From IMG/VR virus record IMGVR_UViG_2857251867_000002: a DNA stretch of 64,000 nt; one strand, given 5' to 3'. The translations under genes and the position numbers were made by a program. This stretch comes from an uncultured virus (IMG/VR IMGVR_UViG_2857251867_000002) (taxonomy: Duplodnaviria > Heunggongvirae > Uroviricota > Caudoviricetes). Below the pieces are notes generated by a model that was not told where the DNA came from, searched no databases, and saw only the letters and a program-made list of their open reading frames with translations. Of this stretch, positions 37,099 through 54,498 are shown piece by piece (positions within the stretch are counted from its first letter, which is position 1; every line of letters starts with the position of its first letter).

Positions 37099-38466
37099 AT
37101 GATATACACAACAGGCACTGTTAACACGGTGTCAGGGTCTGCTATTGTTAAAGGCACTGGCACTAAATTTAAAAATAATAATCCCGCCATTAATATTGGA
37201 ATGACGATTTTAATTAAATCGGGAAATACGAATATTCCGTATATGATTAAATCCGTTAATTCCGATACTGAATTAGTATTAGCACAACCTGCATTAGCCA
37301 CCGCAACGAACACCACATTCTCAATTCATATTACTGAGCCAGATAATAATAGTGATGCAGCAAGAACGATGGTTGCAATAAATGCATACACACAATATTT
37401 CCTTGATGCAATGAATACATGGATGAGTGAAACAGGGCAGACAAAAATTGAGATGCCAAATGGTGAAGTTATCACACTCGATAGCATTAAGAAGATGCAG
37501 GGGGATATTAGTGGAAAAGTGAATAAAACTGGTGATGTAATTTCTGGTAATCTGATCACAAGTGGCTATTTTAAAAGTGAAGGTGGGGAAGTTAATGTGG
37601 CAGGTAATGGAGCCACTGCAAGTATAATGGTTCAAGATGGATTACCACAATTAGTTAGTCGTATTGGTAGCGGAAAGTGGGTACGAAATCAGTTACCAAC
37701 TGAGGCTGGTAAAATAATGGTTGTTGGTGATTATGGGATTGGTATGGCAGGGCTTAGAGAGCCATCTGGGGTGTCTTGCTTTTATGGTGTAGCGTCAGGC
37801 GGTGTTGCGGGTTTTTCATCAAATGGCGCTGGATTCCAATCCACATACCAACAAAACAGACGAGCGATGCTATTTGTAAATACTATCGGTGATTTACAAG
37901 TAAGATTTAGTTTGTCAGATTCCATCGTAGATACAACAACACCATGGCGTACAGTATGGAGTTCAAATAATACAACGGTAGACAGTAACGGTTTTATTAA
38001 ACGCGCCTCTCCAATCATCGACATCAACCCTGACGGCACATTCACTACTAACGACGAATCTGAGGGCGCAACTGTTACTCGAGTAGCTCAGGGCGAATAC
38101 CTTATCGAGGGTGTATTAGGTTTTAATGCTGATGCAGGCTGGGGCGGTGTCGATGGTGGTATTGAAATTCCGCTAGATGTCAATAAACAACCACTGATAT
38201 GGGTTAACTCTAAAATCAACAAAGACGGCTCTATTCTCGTTAAAACGTATCATCGCACTCACCCTAACGCACCTGAGTTTGCTAATAATGAAATTAACGG
38301 TTTCAATGATGGTGATCCAATTGATATCCCTGATGGTCGTTTTATTTCCGTTCGTGTACAGATGCCAGAGCAATCAATCTATAACGTGAGAATGCGTGAG
38401 ATGGAAGAAGCGCAGAAAGAGGAGGAGGAAGAAAATCAGAGTGCTAATGAAGATACTACATGTTGA
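37099..38466 (+). CDS. Tail fibre protein
   Basis: YTTGTV..GTGT N-terminus; NTTVDSNGFIKRASP C-domain. Confidence 0.85.
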   Translation: MIYTTGTVNTVSGSAIVKGTGTKFKNNNPAINIGMTILIKSGNTNIPYMIKSVNSDTELVLAQPALATATNTTFSIHITEPDNNSDAARTMVAINAYTQYFLDAMNTWMSETGQTKIEMPNGEVITLDSIKKMQGDISGKVNKTGDVISGNLITSGYFKSEGGEVNVAGNGATASIMVQDGLPQLVSRIGSGKWVRNQLPTEAGKIMVVGDYGIGMAGLREPSGVSCFYGVASGGVAGFSSNGAGFQSTYQQNRRAMLFVNTIGDLQVRFSLSDSIVDTTTPWRTVWSSNNTTVDSNGFIKRASPIIDINPDGTFTTNDESEGATVTRVAQGEYLIEGVLGFNADAGWGGVDGGIEIPLDVNKQPLIWVNSKINKDGSILVKTYHRTHPNAPEFANNEINGFNDGDPIDIPDGRFISVRVQMPEQSIYNVRMREMEEAQKEEEEENQSANEDTTC

Positions 38467-40244: not shown

Positions 40245-40330
40245 TAAAAAGGCATAACCACCATTTTTTAGGTCTATCAAGATTGAATATACCTTAATAA
40301 ACAAATAGTTAACGATAGCAGGTTTATATA

Positions 40331-40495
40331 ATGCTACGCCACATGGGTTGGACAGAAGCTGCTGACTTAATCATTAAAGGTATGGAAGGCGCGATTGCCG
40401 CTAAGACTGTCACTTATGATTTCGAACGTCAGTTAGAAGGCGCTAAATTGCTGAAATGTAGCGAGTTTGGTGACGCGATTATCAAGCATATGTAA
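40331..40495 (+). pseudogene. icd: Duplicated 3' end of isocitrate dehydrogenase; att junction
   Basis: [54 protein letters not shown]. Confidence 0.95.
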
Positions 40496-40515
40496 TTGTT
40501 GATTTGATAAATAGT

Positions 40516-40548
40516 TAACGGGAGCTTATTAGTTCCCGTTTATTTTTT
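40516..40548 (+). terminator. Terminator after icd fragment
   Basis: AACGGGA/TCCCGTT stem followed by T-rich run. Confidence 0.7.
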
Positions 40549-40561
40549 GTACTATAAAATT

Positions 40562-40597
40562 CTTCCCCAAAATATCCCCAAAACTCTTCCCCAAAAC
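40562..40597 (+). repeat. Three TCCCCAAAA repeats, probable integrase arm-type sites
   Basis: Tandem repeats between att core and int stop. Confidence 0.6.
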
Positions 40598-40604
40598 TGT
40601 TCAA

Positions 40605-41738
40605 TTAAACAGCAATAACTTGCCATTCTTTGCCTCTATCGTCGTGGTATTTATCAGTCATATTTTGTGTTTTATGCCCCAATAATTTTTGTGTATTAAT
40701 TCCTTGCTCACGATAAAGTCGTTCTGATAAAGAACGTTGTTCATGGAAAGTAGGTGCTGTGCCTTTTTCCCAAGTTAACCCACATTTATCTCGTGCTTTT
40801 TTAAATGTTGTGGTTAACGTATTTGGCGTGACTTGTTCACCTCGTTTCGCTTGTGCGGTGGTATGCCGATAATGCACGAGATATTTACTTACAACAGCAT
40901 CACGACATTGAGCAACAACCTCCCTTAATGAGAGGTTGATAGCCTCACATTTAAGCGAGAGAGGGATGGCTAACTTACTGCCCGTTTTTTCTTGCTGTAC
41001 ATGTAACATGTCATCCCAAATATCAGAGAATTTCATTTTACAGATATCACCGATCCGCTGACCTGTGGTTAAGGCGAGCAACATTCCACATTGCAAATAA
41101 GGAGGGTGATTTTTAGCTTGCTGATAAATAGTGCGCCATTCGTCCAATGTCATGCGTTCTCTTTTCACTCTGTTCCGTGGCTGTTTAGTTGCTTTCGCGG
41201 GATTGTAACCAGGCGGAACATAGCCTGCATGTTGAGCTTCTTTAAATACATCAATAAGCACCATGCGAACGACCTGAGCCATTCTTGAATGTCCTAATAC
41301 TTTGACGGAATCTATTATTTCAGCAATATCTAATGCGGTTATCTCTTTTAATATTTTCGTACCACAATACTGACGGAATAAATTAATAGGTTTCATCTTT
41401 TGTCGATAAGAATTAATTTTTAATTCACCGATATCTAATCTTTCTTTTTGAATATCTAAATATTTATCTATCCATATATCGACAGATATTTCAGACTTGC
41501 TTGTCTTAATTTTTGATAACCGTTCATTAATACTTAATAACTGTCGAGTATGTTGTTCAGCAATAATTGTATTGGCCTGAATGGCAGTTTCTCTCGCTTC
41601 CTGCTCGTCAGTGCCTAAGCTATGAAATTTACCAGTGATGGGGTGTTTATATTGCCAATAAATTTTGCCGTTACGTTTATCTAACTTTCGATATAGATTA
41701 GGGATGATAATTTTATGGGTTCGTGGTCGGGCAGCCAT
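40605..41738 (-). CDS. int: Phage tyrosine integrase
   Basis: Paralogue of 1..1131 with all catalytic motifs. Confidence 0.95.
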   Translation of the reverse strand: MAARPRTHKIIIPNLYRKLDKRNGKIYWQYKHPITGKFHSLGTDEQEARETAIQANTIIAEQHTRQLLSINERLSKIKTSKSEISVDIWIDKYLDIQKERLDIGELKINSYRQKMKPINLFRQYCGTKILKEITALDIAEIIDSVKVLGHSRMAQVVRMVLIDVFKEAQHAGYVPPGYNPAKATKQPRNRVKRERMTLDEWRTIYQQAKNHPPYLQCGMLLALTTGQRIGDICKMKFSDIWDDMLHVQQEKTGSKLAIPLSLKCEAINLSLREVVAQCRDAVVSKYLVHYRHTTAQAKRGEQVTPNTLTTTFKKARDKCGLTWEKGTAPTFHEQRSLSERLYREQGINTQKLLGHKTQNMTDKYHDDRGKEWQVIAV

Positions 41739-47820: not shown

Positions 47821-48219
47821 ATGAGAGATATGCAGGAAGTTTTATCACGTTGGGGTGCGTGGTCAGCTAATGAGGGAAATAGTATCGATTACTCATCAAT
47901 CGCTGCTGGTTTTAAAGGATTAATTCCAAGTTCAAGACGAAGCCGAGAGCAATGTTCAGATGATGATGGCTTGAAAATAAATAAAGCGGTATTACATTTA
48001 AAGGTAAATAATAGTTACTTGTTTCAATTGGTTATTATGTACTATGTGAAGAATTATCCTTTGCGTTCAATGGCTTCAAAACTTGGTATTTCGCATAATG
48101 AAGTGGCTAAGCGATTGCAGACAGCGGAAGGATTTATTGAAGGGTGTTTATCGGTTGATAACGTAAAATTAGATATGGATAAAATAATTAGAAAACACCA
48201 TATTTATAGTCTTGCGTAA
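47821..48219 (+). CDS. Q: Late antiterminator Q (short family)
   Basis: MRDMQEVLSRWGAW...CSDDDG...AEGFIEGCL. Confidence 0.9.
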   Translation: MRDMQEVLSRWGAWSANEGNSIDYSSIAAGFKGLIPSSRRSREQCSDDDGLKINKAVLHLKVNNSYLFQLVIMYYVKNYPLRSMASKLGISHNEVAKRLQTAEGFIEGCLSVDNVKLDMDKIIRKHHIYSLA

Positions 48220-49103: not shown

Positions 49104-49562
49104 ATGCCTAACATTAAACCTTTTTCATTATTCCCAACATTATCTGACAACTTACTTTCAAATCGTTTTGATCAGATAGATCGCCTGTTTAGTCAGTTAA
49201 CAGGCAGTAAGCCAATAGCATCACCTATACAGACTTATAACCTGAAACAGATTGATGATAACCATTATGAACTGACAGTGAGTGTGCCTGGATATCAAGA
49301 AAATGACTTATCGGTTTCATTGAAAGGAAGTCGTTTATTGATTGAAGGGAAAAAAGAAGAAAAATCAGAAGAAGACAATGATAAATGGATCCACCGAGGC
49401 ATATCTCAAGGGCAATTTACATTGCAATTTGACCTCGGTAAAAATGTTAAAATAGAAAAAGCCGATTTATCAAGTGGACTTCTGACTATTGCTATTGAGT
49501 ATGAGTTACCGGAAGAAGAAAAACGGCAAACAATAGCGATAGAGAATAAAGACAAAAAATAA
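49104..49562 (+). CDS. Hsp20 small heat shock protein
   Basis: Alpha-crystallin domain (VPGY, WIHRGI, GLLTI); sigma32-like CTTGAAA at 49018. Confidence 0.92.
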   Translation: MPNIKPFSLFPTLSDNLLSNRFDQIDRLFSQLTGSKPIASPIQTYNLKQIDDNHYELTVSVPGYQENDLSVSLKGSRLLIEGKKEEKSEEDNDKWIHRGISQGQFTLQFDLGKNVKIEKADLSSGLLTIAIEYELPEEEKRQTIAIENKDKK

Positions 49563-50532: not shown

Positions 50533-51447
50533 ATGAAAAGCAATTTATTTATCTCTTATGCATGGACGTCTGAAAGCCATCGGGCATGGGTTCGTTTGTT
50601 AGCAAGTCATCTCCATCTAGCTGGTTATGCTATCAAAATTGATGAAGCTGTTGAATATGGCTCCAGCTTGAATGGATTTATGAGAGAGGTTACTGAAGCC
50701 GCACATGTGCTTTTAATTGTTGATGATAACTATGTACATAGAGCAAATAACATGCCAAATTCAGGGGTAGGAATTGAGACTAAATGGATAAGTGAGGCTT
50801 TTTTGCACAAGCCTAATGCTTGGTTATCAGTTATCTTTGTTCAAAATCCCGAACGAAAGTTGCCAGCTTGGTTAGTTGAGCATAATCCAAAAGGCTTTGA
50901 CTTCAATTGCTGCCCAGATAAAGATGATTTTCCTGGAGTAGCTCAGATTGAGGATGTTTGGCGTTGGATTGAAGGCTTACCAGCCGACAAAAGTCATGCT
51001 ATCCATCAACTAATGCTTCGTGAACGTGCTGCTCGGCTTGAGTGCATAAGTAATATGCGTGACCCTGCATACTATACTAATCCAGCCCTCAATGGTCGCG
51101 TGACCTTTTGTTACAATGATAATCCTTTCTACCGAGTAGGTTATGGTGAGTATCACTTTGATATAATGATCGACGAAGTAAATAATGAGACAATTAGGAT
51201 CTATAAAGATTATGGACTCGAGGCTGTTTGGTTTCTTCCTGAATCGTGTTCCGAACCATTAGATTACAAGCCGTTAATCAGGACTATTCGAACTGTCCAA
51301 CTCGAAGTTAGGCAAAAAGCAGTTCTCATGAATTCCGCGGGCATTCTTTGTGTAATCACCATTGAACAAATACAACCTGTAGTAAAGGATAAAGAATTTG
51401 TTCGTGAACACGTTACATTCTCGTATGATATTCTTCATGAACATTGA
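50533..51447 (+). CDS. TIR/SEFIR-domain protein
   Basis: LFISYAW..E.H..WV..LA..L and GVGIE (putative catalytic Glu). Confidence 0.85.
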   Translation: MKSNLFISYAWTSESHRAWVRLLASHLHLAGYAIKIDEAVEYGSSLNGFMREVTEAAHVLLIVDDNYVHRANNMPNSGVGIETKWISEAFLHKPNAWLSVIFVQNPERKLPAWLVEHNPKGFDFNCCPDKDDFPGVAQIEDVWRWIEGLPADKSHAIHQLMLRERAARLECISNMRDPAYYTNPALNGRVTFCYNDNPFYRVGYGEYHFDIMIDEVNNETIRIYKDYGLEAVWFLPESCSEPLDYKPLIRTIRTVQLEVRQKAVLMNSAGILCVITIEQIQPVVKDKEFVREHVTFSYDILHEH

Positions 51448-51559: not shown

Positions 51560-51666
51560 TAAAAAAATGCCGATACGCTAGGAGTCATATCGGCATATAA
51601 AATAAACGCAAGAAGCAATGTAAGTCATGTCGTACTAATTCGTATCAAACCTGTCAATTTGATACA
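51560..51666 (-). ncRNA. ryhB: RyhB-like sRNA
   Basis: Core AGUACGACAUGACUUACAUUGCUUC, 5' hairpin, terminator and Fur-boxed promoter. Confidence 0.8.
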
Positions 51667-51670
51667 TATT

Positions 51671-51701
51671 TAATGATAATTATTCTCATCATTATATTCA
51701 A
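51671..51701 (-). promoter_or_regulatory. Sigma70 promoter overlapped by Fur box
   Basis: TTGAAT-N17-TATCAT; ATGAGAATAATTATCATT. Confidence 0.8.
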
Positions 51702-51811
51702 CCCTAAATTAAATAAGGTTACTTTGTAGCCTTTTCGTCTACGCCGACCACAGAATCAACACCCACTTATACCGTTCACACAAGAGCTGTGAGTCGGCAC
51801 CTTATTAACTA

Positions 51812-52050
51812 AAATAAATCGGTAAATGTTATGGCGGATTATAGTTTTAGTTTACAGTATGTCTTAGAAATAGATGGTGAAATGAACCTCTGTCATTAAA
51901 AGGAAGTCGTTTGTTGATTGAAGGGAAAAAGAAGAAAAACCAGAAGAAGACAATGATAAATGGATCCACTGATGCATATCCCAAGGGCAATTTACGTTAC
52001 AATTTGACCTCAGTAAAAATGTAAAAATAGACAAAACCGATTTATTAAGT
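51812..52050 (+). pseudogene. Chimeric remnant: 5' end of the 53283 gene fused to an internal hsp20 fragment
   Basis: 51812-51897 resembles 53263-53363; 51894-52050 resembles 49317-49474. Confidence 0.75.
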
Positions 52051-52062
52051 AAATAATCCAAT

Positions 52063-53250
52063 AAAAAAAGCCCCCAAGATGAGTTGGGGGAAGTGGGTTA
52101 TATAGTTATAATAAGAAAAAGATTATGAATTTTCTTTATATTATAAAATAATTTAAATTTCCATGGTTTTTATTTTTTTATTAAGATGAGATAAAAAAAT
52201 ATCAAAGTATTATAAAAATAATCGTATCTTTTTTATGGGTAAGGATTTTTAAGGATAAAAAAAATCCATCAGGAGAAGATGGATTAAAAGTACAACTAGT
52301 ACCAATCATATAATGAAGAGAACATATCTACAAAAAAGAGGACAATTAAATGAAATAAATATTTAAATGAGATCTAATGCATTAACAACATTATTAATAA
52401 AATAAACAAAATAAAAATGCAATAACTATATGGTAATAAAGATGGGTTGTAATAAAAAAATATCAAAAAATCACAAAAACAAAAATAATAAAAAAATCCA
52501 TCTGAGTGAGATGGATTTAAAAAAACAAATAAAATATGCAGTAGGAAGGAATTTAAATACTTGTTTTAAATAAGTATTTTTGAAATCAATGATTACACAT
52601 TTTGTATAAATAATTAATTTCGATATTATTAATAAATTATTTTTTTATAATGGTCAATATTGGTTGTTAATGATTTTATTGATTTTGATCACAAATTTAT
52701 ATTTTTAATTTACTAATTTTAAATGTAAAGAATCATTAATAAAGATGGCTTGAATAATAAAAAATAAAACGTTGATAAATAAAAAAACCACCTACGGCAA
52801 GTAGGTGGGAAAAGGAAGAATTAATGTGAGTTGTAATGTACATTATTGAAAATAACACGAAGTAAGTAAAAAACAACAAAAAGAATGAAAATTATCATTT
52901 GGAATTATTAATTTATCATTTTTAGTTTGAGTGTGATTTAACAAATAAGCTTATAATTTCTAGAATGTATTTTTATTAGACTTTGTTTAATTTAATCCTT
53001 TCATATTTCATGAGGATATTTTCATTATGTAAGGATAAAAAAAATCCATCTGGGATAGATGGATTAAACGAATTAAACGGAAAATCATGCTGATTTATGT
53101 AACATATAAAAAAGAGATCATATTAACTAAATGAACAAATTAGAATATATAAATCTACAGCATTAATGACATTATTATTAATAAACAAAATAAAATGAAA
53201 ATTCAATAACTATATTGCAAAAATAATTAATTGTAATATAAAAATATCAA
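52063..53250 (-). ncRNA. Candidate array of five small RNAs
   Basis: Five hairpin+U-tract terminators on minus strand with no ORF of 60 aa or more. Confidence 0.55.
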
Positions 53251-53282
53251 TATGTTTCATCTAAATAAATCGGTAAATATTT

Positions 53283-53705
53283 ATGTCAAAAGAGATAAGC
53301 GAATTACAGTTTAGTCTTCACTATGCATCAGAAACAGACAGTGAAAAGAATACCTCCGTCATTTTAACGGCGAATATCCATACGGCTGATGGAGAAACTC
53401 AACAACTCACACAACTAATTTGCACGACATCTCCCGCAGGTAAAAAGCAATATCGAATCGGCACACAAAAGATTAATGATGCTGGTGACCCATTGCTGGT
53501 GGCGATTGAATCTTATTGGCGCAAAAACACGCAAGAGAGTTGTATTTATTTGTTAGAGAAAGCGAAGCAATTTATTCAAGGGCACTTACAACAAACGAAT
53601 ACTTGGATATCCATGTACGGCCTTGTGATTGTTTCTAATGCGTCACTTGAAGAGCAGTTGCCTGAAAGTTTATTAAAGGCACTTAAAGTATTAATACCCG
53701 CCTAA
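53283..53705 (+). CDS. Hypothetical protein upstream of holin
   Basis: 140 aa ORF. Confidence 0.7.
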   Translation: MSKEISELQFSLHYASETDSEKNTSVILTANIHTADGETQQLTQLICTTSPAGKKQYRIGTQKINDAGDPLLVAIESYWRKNTQESCIYLLEKAKQFIQGHLQQTNTWISMYGLVIVSNASLEEQLPESLLKALKVLIPA

Positions 53706-53758: not shown

Positions 53759-54028
53759 ATGCGTATGGAAAAATTAACCAATGTAACTTATGGAACCGCA
53801 GGCTTAACGGCCTTTTTTGCCAGTCTTTCGTTATATGAATGGGGATTTGTTATCGGGATGGCGTTCAGCATGGTTCTGGGTTTAGCTACTTATTTTATGA
53901 CTCGTCGAGAACAACGAAAACGCACTCAATTATTTGAAGAGCTTGTTCGTCATGTTGACCCGCAAAACCCGACCGAAACGTTAAAAAGGCTTGCTGAATT
54001 AATGGTAAAAGCGCCAAAGGATATTTAA
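53759..54028 (+). CDS. Holin (dual start)
   Basis: Paralogue of 14351. Confidence 0.85.
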   Translation: MRMEKLTNVTYGTAGLTAFFASLSLYEWGFVIGMAFSMVLGLATYFMTRREQRKRTQLFEELVRHVDPQNPTETLKRLAELMVKAPKDI

Positions 54029-54498
54029 TGTCTCTCAAACAGAAAATAGCGGCGATAACAACTGCGGGAGCAACAGCAATTGCGCTAGTAGTGATAGCCC
54101 ATTTTGAAGGGGTGCGTTATGAACCTTATCGTGATGTGGCAGGTGTTTTGACGGTTTGTTATGGGCACACAGGCAAAGACATTATTCAAGGTAAGAGATA
54201 CACACAACAAGAATGTGATGCGTTATTACAAAACGATTTTATTAAGACACAACAGCAAGTCGATGCATTAATCAAAGTACCACTCGATGACTACACCAAA
54301 GCTGCTTTATATTCCTTTGCTTTTAATGTGGGTACAACCGCATTTGCTCGCTCAACATTACTTAAGAAACTAAACGCTGGTGATAGTGCGGGTGCCTGTG
54401 AAGAAATAAAACGTTGGGTTTATGCAGAAGGAAAGGTTTGGCGAGGGCTTGTCAGTCGTCGAGAGGCGGAGTCAGCACTATGTCATGGAAACCTTTAA
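54028..54498 (+). CDS. SAR endolysin
   Basis: Paralogue of 14620. Confidence 0.92.
   Translation: MSLKQKIAAITTAGATAIALVVIAHFEGVRYEPYRDVAGVLTVCYGHTGKDIIQGKRYTQQECDALLQNDFIKTQQQVDALIKVPLDDYTKAALYSFAFNVGTTAFARSTLLKKLNAGDSAGACEEIKRWVYAEGKVWRGLVSRREAESALCHGNL

Follow-up and report, generated by a model that had tools for sequence, protein, structure and literature searches.

Five co-oriented intrinsic terminators lie between positions 52063 and 53250 of the window, the 64,000-nucleotide stretch of viral DNA analyzed here, and form an array that is a real, non-random feature of this sequence. The array is probably a battery of uncatalogued small RNA (sRNA) genes. We consider it fairly probable that these genes are non-coding and were acquired as a moron cassette and, by analogy with known systems, that they are independently transcribed and of the Hfq type and that their RNAs act by base pairing.

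A five-terminator array in a moron interval

The minus-strand hairpins, each with an adjoining T-run, have stems at 52071–52090, 52263–52285, 52495–52517, 52788–52808 and 53043–53065. All five were found where a first-pass annotation of this DNA had placed them, and the distances between them (195, 232, 291 and 257 bp) agree with its estimate of ~190–290 bp. The extreme AT-richness it described is also evident, with a GC content of 0.206 (20.6%) for 52051–53262. This region contains five terminators on the minus strand and none on the plus strand, compared with a mean of 0.00 and a maximum of 1 in 300 dinucleotide shuffles. Six of the nine minus-strand terminators of the 64-kb window are located within 51596–53065, and the rest of the window has at most two co-oriented terminators per 1.1 kb. 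The highest count in 80 related phage loci is three, reached in one locus. When a folding-based detector was applied to the 1.5 kb upstream of a conserved 140-aa open reading frame (ORF) in 72 of these loci (the 80 minus eight with short flanks), 26 had no minus-strand terminator, 44 had one and 2 had two, as against five in the window.

The stem AATCCATC/GATGGATT is common to three of the five units, with differing loops, as the annotation had recognized. These three AATCCATC stems contain only three G-C pairs and have energies of -9.4 to -10.7 kcal/mol. The unit 4 terminator is possibly a variant of the same scaffold, and unit 1 is a separate family. Each terminator combines a U-tail with a preceding U-rich single-stranded stretch, again as described earlier. 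The hairpins have no U-run on the plus strand, and all are oriented against the late operon.

Other elements of the initial description carry less weight. The array was called ORF-free, and its longest ORF is indeed only 47 aa, but an ORF of 60 aa is likewise missing from 72% of shuffles, and the absence is therefore uninformative as evidence. Sites resembling -10 elements are present as claimed, but promoter-like sites are not enriched (25 versus 20.6 ± 5.1), and the proposed transcript range of 60–120 nt is too narrow for the predicted RNAs, which span about 44–165 nt. What argues for the putative promoters is solely their conservation across homologues.

The array occupies the moron interval downstream of the antiterminator gene Q in a lambdoid prophage (Table 1), the location that characterizes AgvB and AsxR. 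Following Q are the morons cspA, HSP20, an AAA kinase and a TIR protein, and then the 140-aa ORF, holin, lysozyme and Rz. Phage vB_BPM-V3 has the same ORF and lysis genes about 450 bp after Q, which identifies the Q-to-ORF segment as a moron interval. Because the closest phage records are mostly Proteus phages, and because 5 of 29 genome matches to the terminator pattern fall in two Proteus records, we infer that the host is Proteus. The window also includes two tandem prophages at the icd site (1–39058 and 40327–41738). Beyond the tail genes of the first, which stop near 38466, lie a copy of the 3' end of icd and then a second integrase. A hairpin-forming linker, at 51732–51813 in the window, is conserved in dozens of related lambdoid phages, where it directly precedes the 140-aa ORF or holin; it is present several times per genome and has no Rfam match, and may be a site of processing or a linker for recombination within the moron interval.

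Table 1. Positions of the array units and of neighboring features in the window
Feature	Position	Strand	Details
Integrase of lambdoid prophage	40605–41738		
Antiterminator Q	47821–48219	plus	PF06530, E 1.5e-43; start of the moron interval from Q to holin
TIR-domain moron	50533–51447		Pfam TIR_2, E 7.7e-8; candidate anti-phage defense gene
RyhB-like sRNA gene	51560–51701	minus	Fur box over promoter; sixth co-oriented unit, outside the insert
Decayed duplicate of 140-aa ORF start	51810–51897	plus	Left border of insert
Insert carrying the array	51829–53280		1,452 bp; empty site in other isolates
HSP20 (ibp-like) moron gene fragment	51893–52050	plus	Frameshifted middle fragment; about 90% identical to 49317–49475
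Unit 1	52063–52163	minus	-35/-10 pair at 52158–52163 and 52135–52140, spacer 17 bp; predicted RNA about 68 nt; G-free single-stranded body of ~40 nt; CCCCCAA/TTGGGGG terminator; five homologues compared
Unit 2 (type A)	52257–52470	minus	Promoter-like pairs: distal 52425–52453, proximal 52305–52333 (-10 TATGAT); predicted RNA about 44 nt from the proximal pair, about 160 nt from the distal pair; AATCCATC terminator
Unit 3	52488–52693	minus	CRP/FNR-like site 52678–52693; TTGACC 52652–52657; predicted RNA about 135 nt; structured 5' part (fold z -5.3); 26-nt pyrimidine-rich block 52528–52553; AATCCATC terminator
Unit 4	52781–52857	minus	Extended -10-like site near 52850; predicted RNA about 61 nt; single-stranded body of 33 nt from 52841, with RyhB-like seed and 5' end complementary to GcvB R1; CCACCTAC/GTAGGTGG terminator
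Unit 5 (type A)	53036–53255	minus	Distal promoter-like pair 53209–53237; predicted RNA about 65 or about 165 nt; AATCCATC terminator
140-aa conserved phage ORF (phrog_2473)	53283–53705	plus	Precedes holin and lysozyme; right border of insert
Holin	53759–54028		
Lysozyme	54028–54498		

Contigs from three RNA runs join 51813–51829 straight to 53281–53282 and thus display the empty site, and run X19 contains 51804–53278 within a single 1,494-nt contig that differs by 16 substitutions and 5 gap letters. The insert is therefore real and occurs independently. At its start, the two gene relics listed in Table 1 are fused at a short shared sequence, and this fusion of the ORF-start relic to the HSP20 fragment points to recombination between two moron regions and subsequent deletion. 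RNA run X1 yields one 274-nt contig from the array (52794–53067, depth 5), whose strand and ends are not readable from contigs and which may represent DNA. The insert is absent from X2 and X3, two of the three RNA runs, and the lack of array coverage in them consequently says nothing.

Architecture, conservation and reshuffling of the units

Promoter-like elements recur at defined positions among homologous units. The elements T(T/G)G and TAYAAA are present 16–17 bp apart in all five copies of unit 1, at a fixed distance from the stem. Units 2 and 5 are paralogues located 784 bp apart and, like other type A copies, have a distal promoter-like pair. A proximal TAYGAT lies 23–30 nt ahead of the stem in five of six type A copies, and is degraded in unit 5 (TATGTT, 53101–53106). 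With both pairs available, the type A RNA would be either 42–50 nt long with a variable 5' end, or ~160 nt long with a conserved core. The start of unit 4 was placed by eye from solo family members and falls outside the four best-scoring promoter sites. Matches to Fur, FNR and CRP consensus motifs are at chance level relative to shuffles inside the array, and the CRP/FNR-like site of unit 3 is by itself not beyond chance in the same kind of comparison.

Folding predicts that the bodies of units 1 and 4 are unpaired. Across 14 unit copies, neither strand has an ORF that keeps its start, length or sequence. The plus strand does contain a few short ORFs whose ribosome-binding sites are weak, such as one of 15 aa opposite unit 5.

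Array sequence is present in genomes G018 (two places), G009, G021 and G016 among the 61 searched, with only five candidates scored per genome. Comparing unit number and order across related prophages, a check suggested by the first-pass annotation, reveals that both vary among the homologous clusters. Along the RNA strand, the window reads A-4-3-A-1, the two G018 clusters read A-3-1 and A-1, G009 reads A-D-1, and G021 reads A-1; only a promoter-side fragment, the upstream part of type A, is left in G016. In G018 the upstream part of unit 4 is kept and its body is missing, and the unit 4 body has no homologue in 21 genomes of the genus. The terminator pattern itself occurs at eight sites in 3 of 21 Proteus-genus genomes, two solo copies included, and a backwards control gave none.

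The clusters of G018, G009 and G016 sit among moron and integrase remnants beside copies of the icd 3' end. In G021 the cluster lies at the start of a contig, accompanied by the same morons. Of the four clusters of rearranged homologous units, three trace to prophage remnants at the same icd site. The loci in question (L137 and L138 in G018, L140 in G009 and L141 in G016) are piles of prophage remnants at one site, with integrase and icd fragments. Morons kept in such piles include cspA, HSP20, a YagU-like gene, the RyhB-like gene and the array.

Conservation follows the borders of the units. Between unit 1 and four homologues, the stem and loop are 90–100% identical, the body 61–93% and the promoter region 70–97%, whereas the spacers are 54–62% (upstream) and 33–75% (downstream) identical, values that are lowered partly by indels and depend on segment borders drawn by hand. 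For unit 3 and G018, identity is 96–100% in the 26-nt block and 100% in the terminator, compared with 39% in the downstream spacer. Neighboring morons are about 90% identical at four-fold sites. The earlier notion of a modular array with a conserved 3' scaffold and variable upstream sequence is upheld by this unit-wise conservation, but only three of the five units have the scaffold in common. When 12 terminators are aligned, 97% of stem cells pair, and the loops vary in sequence and length. Just three two-sided changes are seen, which come from two sequences, the misaligned unit 4 and unit D (see below), and these provide weak evidence of covariation.

Some family members stand apart from the clusters. 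A solo intergenic member of the AATCCATC family is found at L265 (G018) and L266 (G021), with a predicted RNA length of about 63 nt. Both copies have a TTGATT-17-TAGATT promoter pair, with spacers that are unrelated. Their first 7 nt are the same as those of unit 4; the bodies show no significant similarity to it (p 0.16 and 0.77). Unit D (L140:7767–7910, G009), which is absent from the window, has a CRP-like site upstream that matches at 9 of 10 positions (2% of shuffles reach this) and a weak score with the RyhB model (E 0.91). The stem form of unit D also serves as a common terminator at gene ends in other genera. AAACCATC stems occur in 27 of 401 family genomes and are mostly ordinary gene-end terminators.

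Searches of broader collections returned little. A unit 1 model of low sensitivity found nothing in 141 family genomes (17 candidates scored in each) and recovered within the genus its four training sites only. Array sequence is present in none of the 80 IMG/VR loci, and GenBank phages and plasmids gave matches to flanking or low-complexity sequence only. The terminator pattern matched 36 viral and 27 metagenome stretches; of the 36 viral ones only four aligned, in the hairpin alone. Corresponding searches with the patterns of unit 1 and unit 3 matched nine stretches and none, respectively.

Candidate pairing partners and the neighboring RyhB-like gene

A RyhB-like gene in the same orientation as the array had been reported in the first-pass annotation, and its identity is borne out by an Rfam RyhB score of 30.1 bits (E=0.0049; cut-off 55 bits) and by z values of 8.7–9.6 against host RyhB copies. 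Its Fur box matches at 15 of 19 positions, which none of 200 shuffles equals. The gene is common in related phages, with an identical or near-identical terminator in 29 of 72 loci. A second Fur-boxed minus-strand family uses the terminator of the RyhB-like gene with different bodies, and is located about 80–230 nt upstream of the 140-aa ORF in L026, L052, L054, L062, L078 and L080. Two Fur-boxed units stand in tandem at L060/L074, the first with its RyhB seed partly deleted. Genomes G001, G018, G009 and G021 (L219–L229) have four RyhB-family matches each, and outgroup G023 has two. Three or four of these copies are of chromosomal type, and G018 also has the phage type.

Among the array units, unit 4 is the best candidate for a sponge of the host sRNA GcvB. 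Its 5' end is predicted to form 14 bp with one bulge with R1 of the G001 GcvB (p 0.0023, 3,000 shuffles). Against a panel of 10 sRNAs, the pairing has a p value of 0.0075 (800 shuffles), which becomes about 0.05 when corrected for the seven bodies tested; the other six bodies give p values of 0.12–0.91 against the host panel. Host RyhB scores nearly as well as unit 4 in GcvB pairing (-19.4 versus -21.0), and the complementarity may thus be a by-product of RyhB-like ancestry. The four best of 40 ungapped comparisons of unit 4 with host sRNAs, a set obtained by Rfam searches, are all to RyhB-family members in the same sense (z 3.1–4.8), and a gapped local test against RyhB gives p 0.07. Nonetheless, assignment of unit 4 to the RyhB family was rejected. 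The sixth unit is RyhB-like (RF00057) and has a Fur box, whereas unit 4 has no RF00057 match, an altered seed, a different terminator and no Fur box beyond chance, the best Fur match in the array (13 of 19) being reached by 73% of shuffles.

Several other pairings were tried and set aside. Unit 1 as a GcvB sponge gives p 0.04 in the window and 0.09–0.46 in four homologues. Mimicry of Spot 42 by type A and of FnrS by unit 3, proposed by eye, did not reach significance in comparisons with 19 host sRNA copies, each taken in either orientation. Pairing of G009 unit D with FnrS reached p 0.01 in one test and failed a stricter helix test. An anti-RBS anatomy of the bodies does not exceed what composition predicts (1 of 12 below p 0.05). 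Exact-pattern searches, which have little sensitivity for imperfect pairing, gave no conserved translation start with complementarity to units 1, 3, 4 or 5. Conserved pattern matches for units 1, 4 and 5 are mostly away from gene starts, and those that recur lie at the starts of ORFs of 21, 37 and 7 codons. Matches at the starts of long ORFs occur in single genomes only, and the exact match of unit 3 is to itself alone.

Possible functions and relation to known prophage sRNAs

If the array is an sRNA battery, each unit would begin with a sigma-70 promoter of the host type, continue into a short single-stranded region for pairing and end in an intrinsic terminator. Host RNA polymerase would transcribe the units against the phage late transcript, and since this does not depend on Q, the RNAs could be made in the lysogen. 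The terminator U-tails would recruit Hfq, as in known systems, and the exposed bodies would base-pair in trans with mRNAs or sRNAs of the host, with unit 4 perhaps acting as a GcvB sponge. The array may have grown through duplication, as in units 2 and 5, and through recombination events in which units are gained, lost and rearranged. Decay is also under way, because gene relics flank the insert, the proximal -10 element of unit 5 is degraded, and the G016 unit is broken.

Such decay could have gone further, leaving relics with no present function: either the promoter–terminator shells of deleted morons, or former sRNA genes mostly silenced in AT-rich DNA. The fused gene relics at the start of the insert, the placement of homologues in prophage-remnant piles, the fragmentary units of G016 and G018, and the patchy spread (3 of 21 genomes) all fit this explanation. 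We nevertheless judge it unlikely, since five divergent copies preserve bodies, hexamers and stems better than spacers, the gene-less architecture recurs in paralogues and solo copies, and the promoters are not followed by any ribosome-binding site that has a conserved ORF. Alternatively, the hairpins might merely stop spurious antisense transcription from entering the moron genes and the Q region. This would account for their single direction against the late operon and the lack of plus-strand U-runs, and chance promoters are abundant at this GC content. A single terminator would suffice for insulation, however, no minus-strand gene lies upstream, and neither the conserved hexamers at fixed distances nor the invariant 26-nt block of unit 3 would be needed, making this role quite improbable.

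We give little credence to the idea that, instead of pairing specifically with host RNAs, the RNAs damp the Q-dependent late transcript as cis-antisense RNAs or sequester a protein or Hfq. Their position does provide perfect complementarity to any late transcript, some clusters contain repeats of the word ACUCAY on the RNA strand (p 0.02–0.34), and no trans target was found by our searches. Yet antisense action in cis requires no conserved sequence, the units persist in remnant piles beside integrase fragments rather than in intact late operons, and ACUCAY is not significant in the window (p 0.11). Type I toxin-antitoxin systems such as Ibs/Sib and Ldr/Rdl occur as tandem repeats, and the few short plus-strand ORFs might be viewed as small-peptide or toxin genes of this kind. 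The lack of a conserved ORF on either strand in the 14 unit copies, of any antitoxin family match in Rfam at E values up to 10, and of a plus-strand terminator in the array makes this highly improbable.

A battery of base-pairing sRNAs would have precedents at the same genomic site. Lambdoid prophages of EHEC carry moron-site sRNAs of 51–60 nt whose 3' parts are conserved and whose 5' parts vary; one of them, AgvB, blocks GcvB R1 (PMC4104026). AgvB (EcOnc01, RF02702), AsxR (EcOnc02, RF02703) and EcOnc03 lie, like the array, between Q/PR' and a conserved hypothetical ORF, and the array matches these validated sRNAs in site, orientation and design (PMC4104026). The earlier proposal of an undescribed system is therefore overstated. 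Units 2, 3 and 5 join a shared scaffold to variable upstream sequence, which may parallel the EHEC design; the predicted sizes are about 61 nt for unit 4 and 44–165 nt for the others. Unit 4 is predicted to pair with GcvB R1 as AgvB does (PMC4104026), although the exact CACAACA motif is missing from it. The EHEC prophages have convergent pairs (PMC4104026), whereas the array has five co-oriented units plus the RyhB-like gene. In Rfam searches, the best AsxR score is 19.7 bits on unit 1 (cut-off 63, E 7.5), no AgvB match appears at E values up to 10, and the AgvB model exceeds its cut-off in none of five genus genomes. More generally, the array units reach no cut-off for the Rfam families of EHEC- or Pas-type sRNAs, and STnc100 has no match in the Rfam scan of the array region.

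Other reports describe further sRNAs of prophage late regions. HnrS is a 66-nt, Hfq-associated, intrinsically terminated RNA with one copy per prophage (PMC13502914), and PasA-D/STnc100 are Hfq-associated RNAs of 80–240 nt (bioRxiv 10.64898/2026.05.13.724894; PMC8550237). These resemble the array in their location near Q or holin, in having related scaffolds with different seeds, and in their spread by recombination (PMC13502914; bioRxiv 10.64898/2026.05.13.724894; PMC8550237). HnrS and Pas are E. coli/Shigella families, unlike the array (PMC13502914; bioRxiv 10.64898/2026.05.13.724894), and HnrS copies increase through acquisition of more prophages, whereas the array stacks units in one locus (PMC13502914). 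By contrast, svsR lies at cI (PMC12803456). Listeria LhrC1-4 also comprise several sRNA genes per locus, each with its own promoter, but these copies are described as almost identical, additive and chromosomal (PMC4132741), whereas the array units are phage-borne, differ in their bodies and belong to at least two scaffold families. A search of mostly freely accessible literature found neither a description of prophage sRNAs arranged in a tandem array or of the Proteus RNAs considered here, nor any study of prophage sRNAs in the genus Proteus. The accessible part of a review of prophage effects likewise mentions no such array (PMC13492144).

What is new is the number of units, compared with 0–2 in relatives, and the families they represent; the concept itself is already known. 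Five packed, probably independent sRNA genes may let the phage adjust several host pathways together. If expressed, the array would be an unusually dense phage-borne sRNA locus, and would add two uncatalogued RNA families. Because its paralogues share a scaffold and differ in the pairing region, and because isolates with and without the insert exist, the origin of new sRNA specificity and the tuning of multiple regulons could be tested directly. A sponge for GcvB that arose separately from AgvB would, if true, imply convergent phage targeting of amino-acid uptake control. More tentatively, and with considerable doubt, lambdoid phages of Proteus might maintain a swappable RNA cassette at the moron site, where scaffolds are reused, seeds are re-targeted (from RyhB-derived to GcvB sponge), and batteries of five or six units under different host signals are kept by hosts after the prophage decays. 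If that were so, the birth, duplication, re-targeting and domestication of sRNAs would be visible at one locus.
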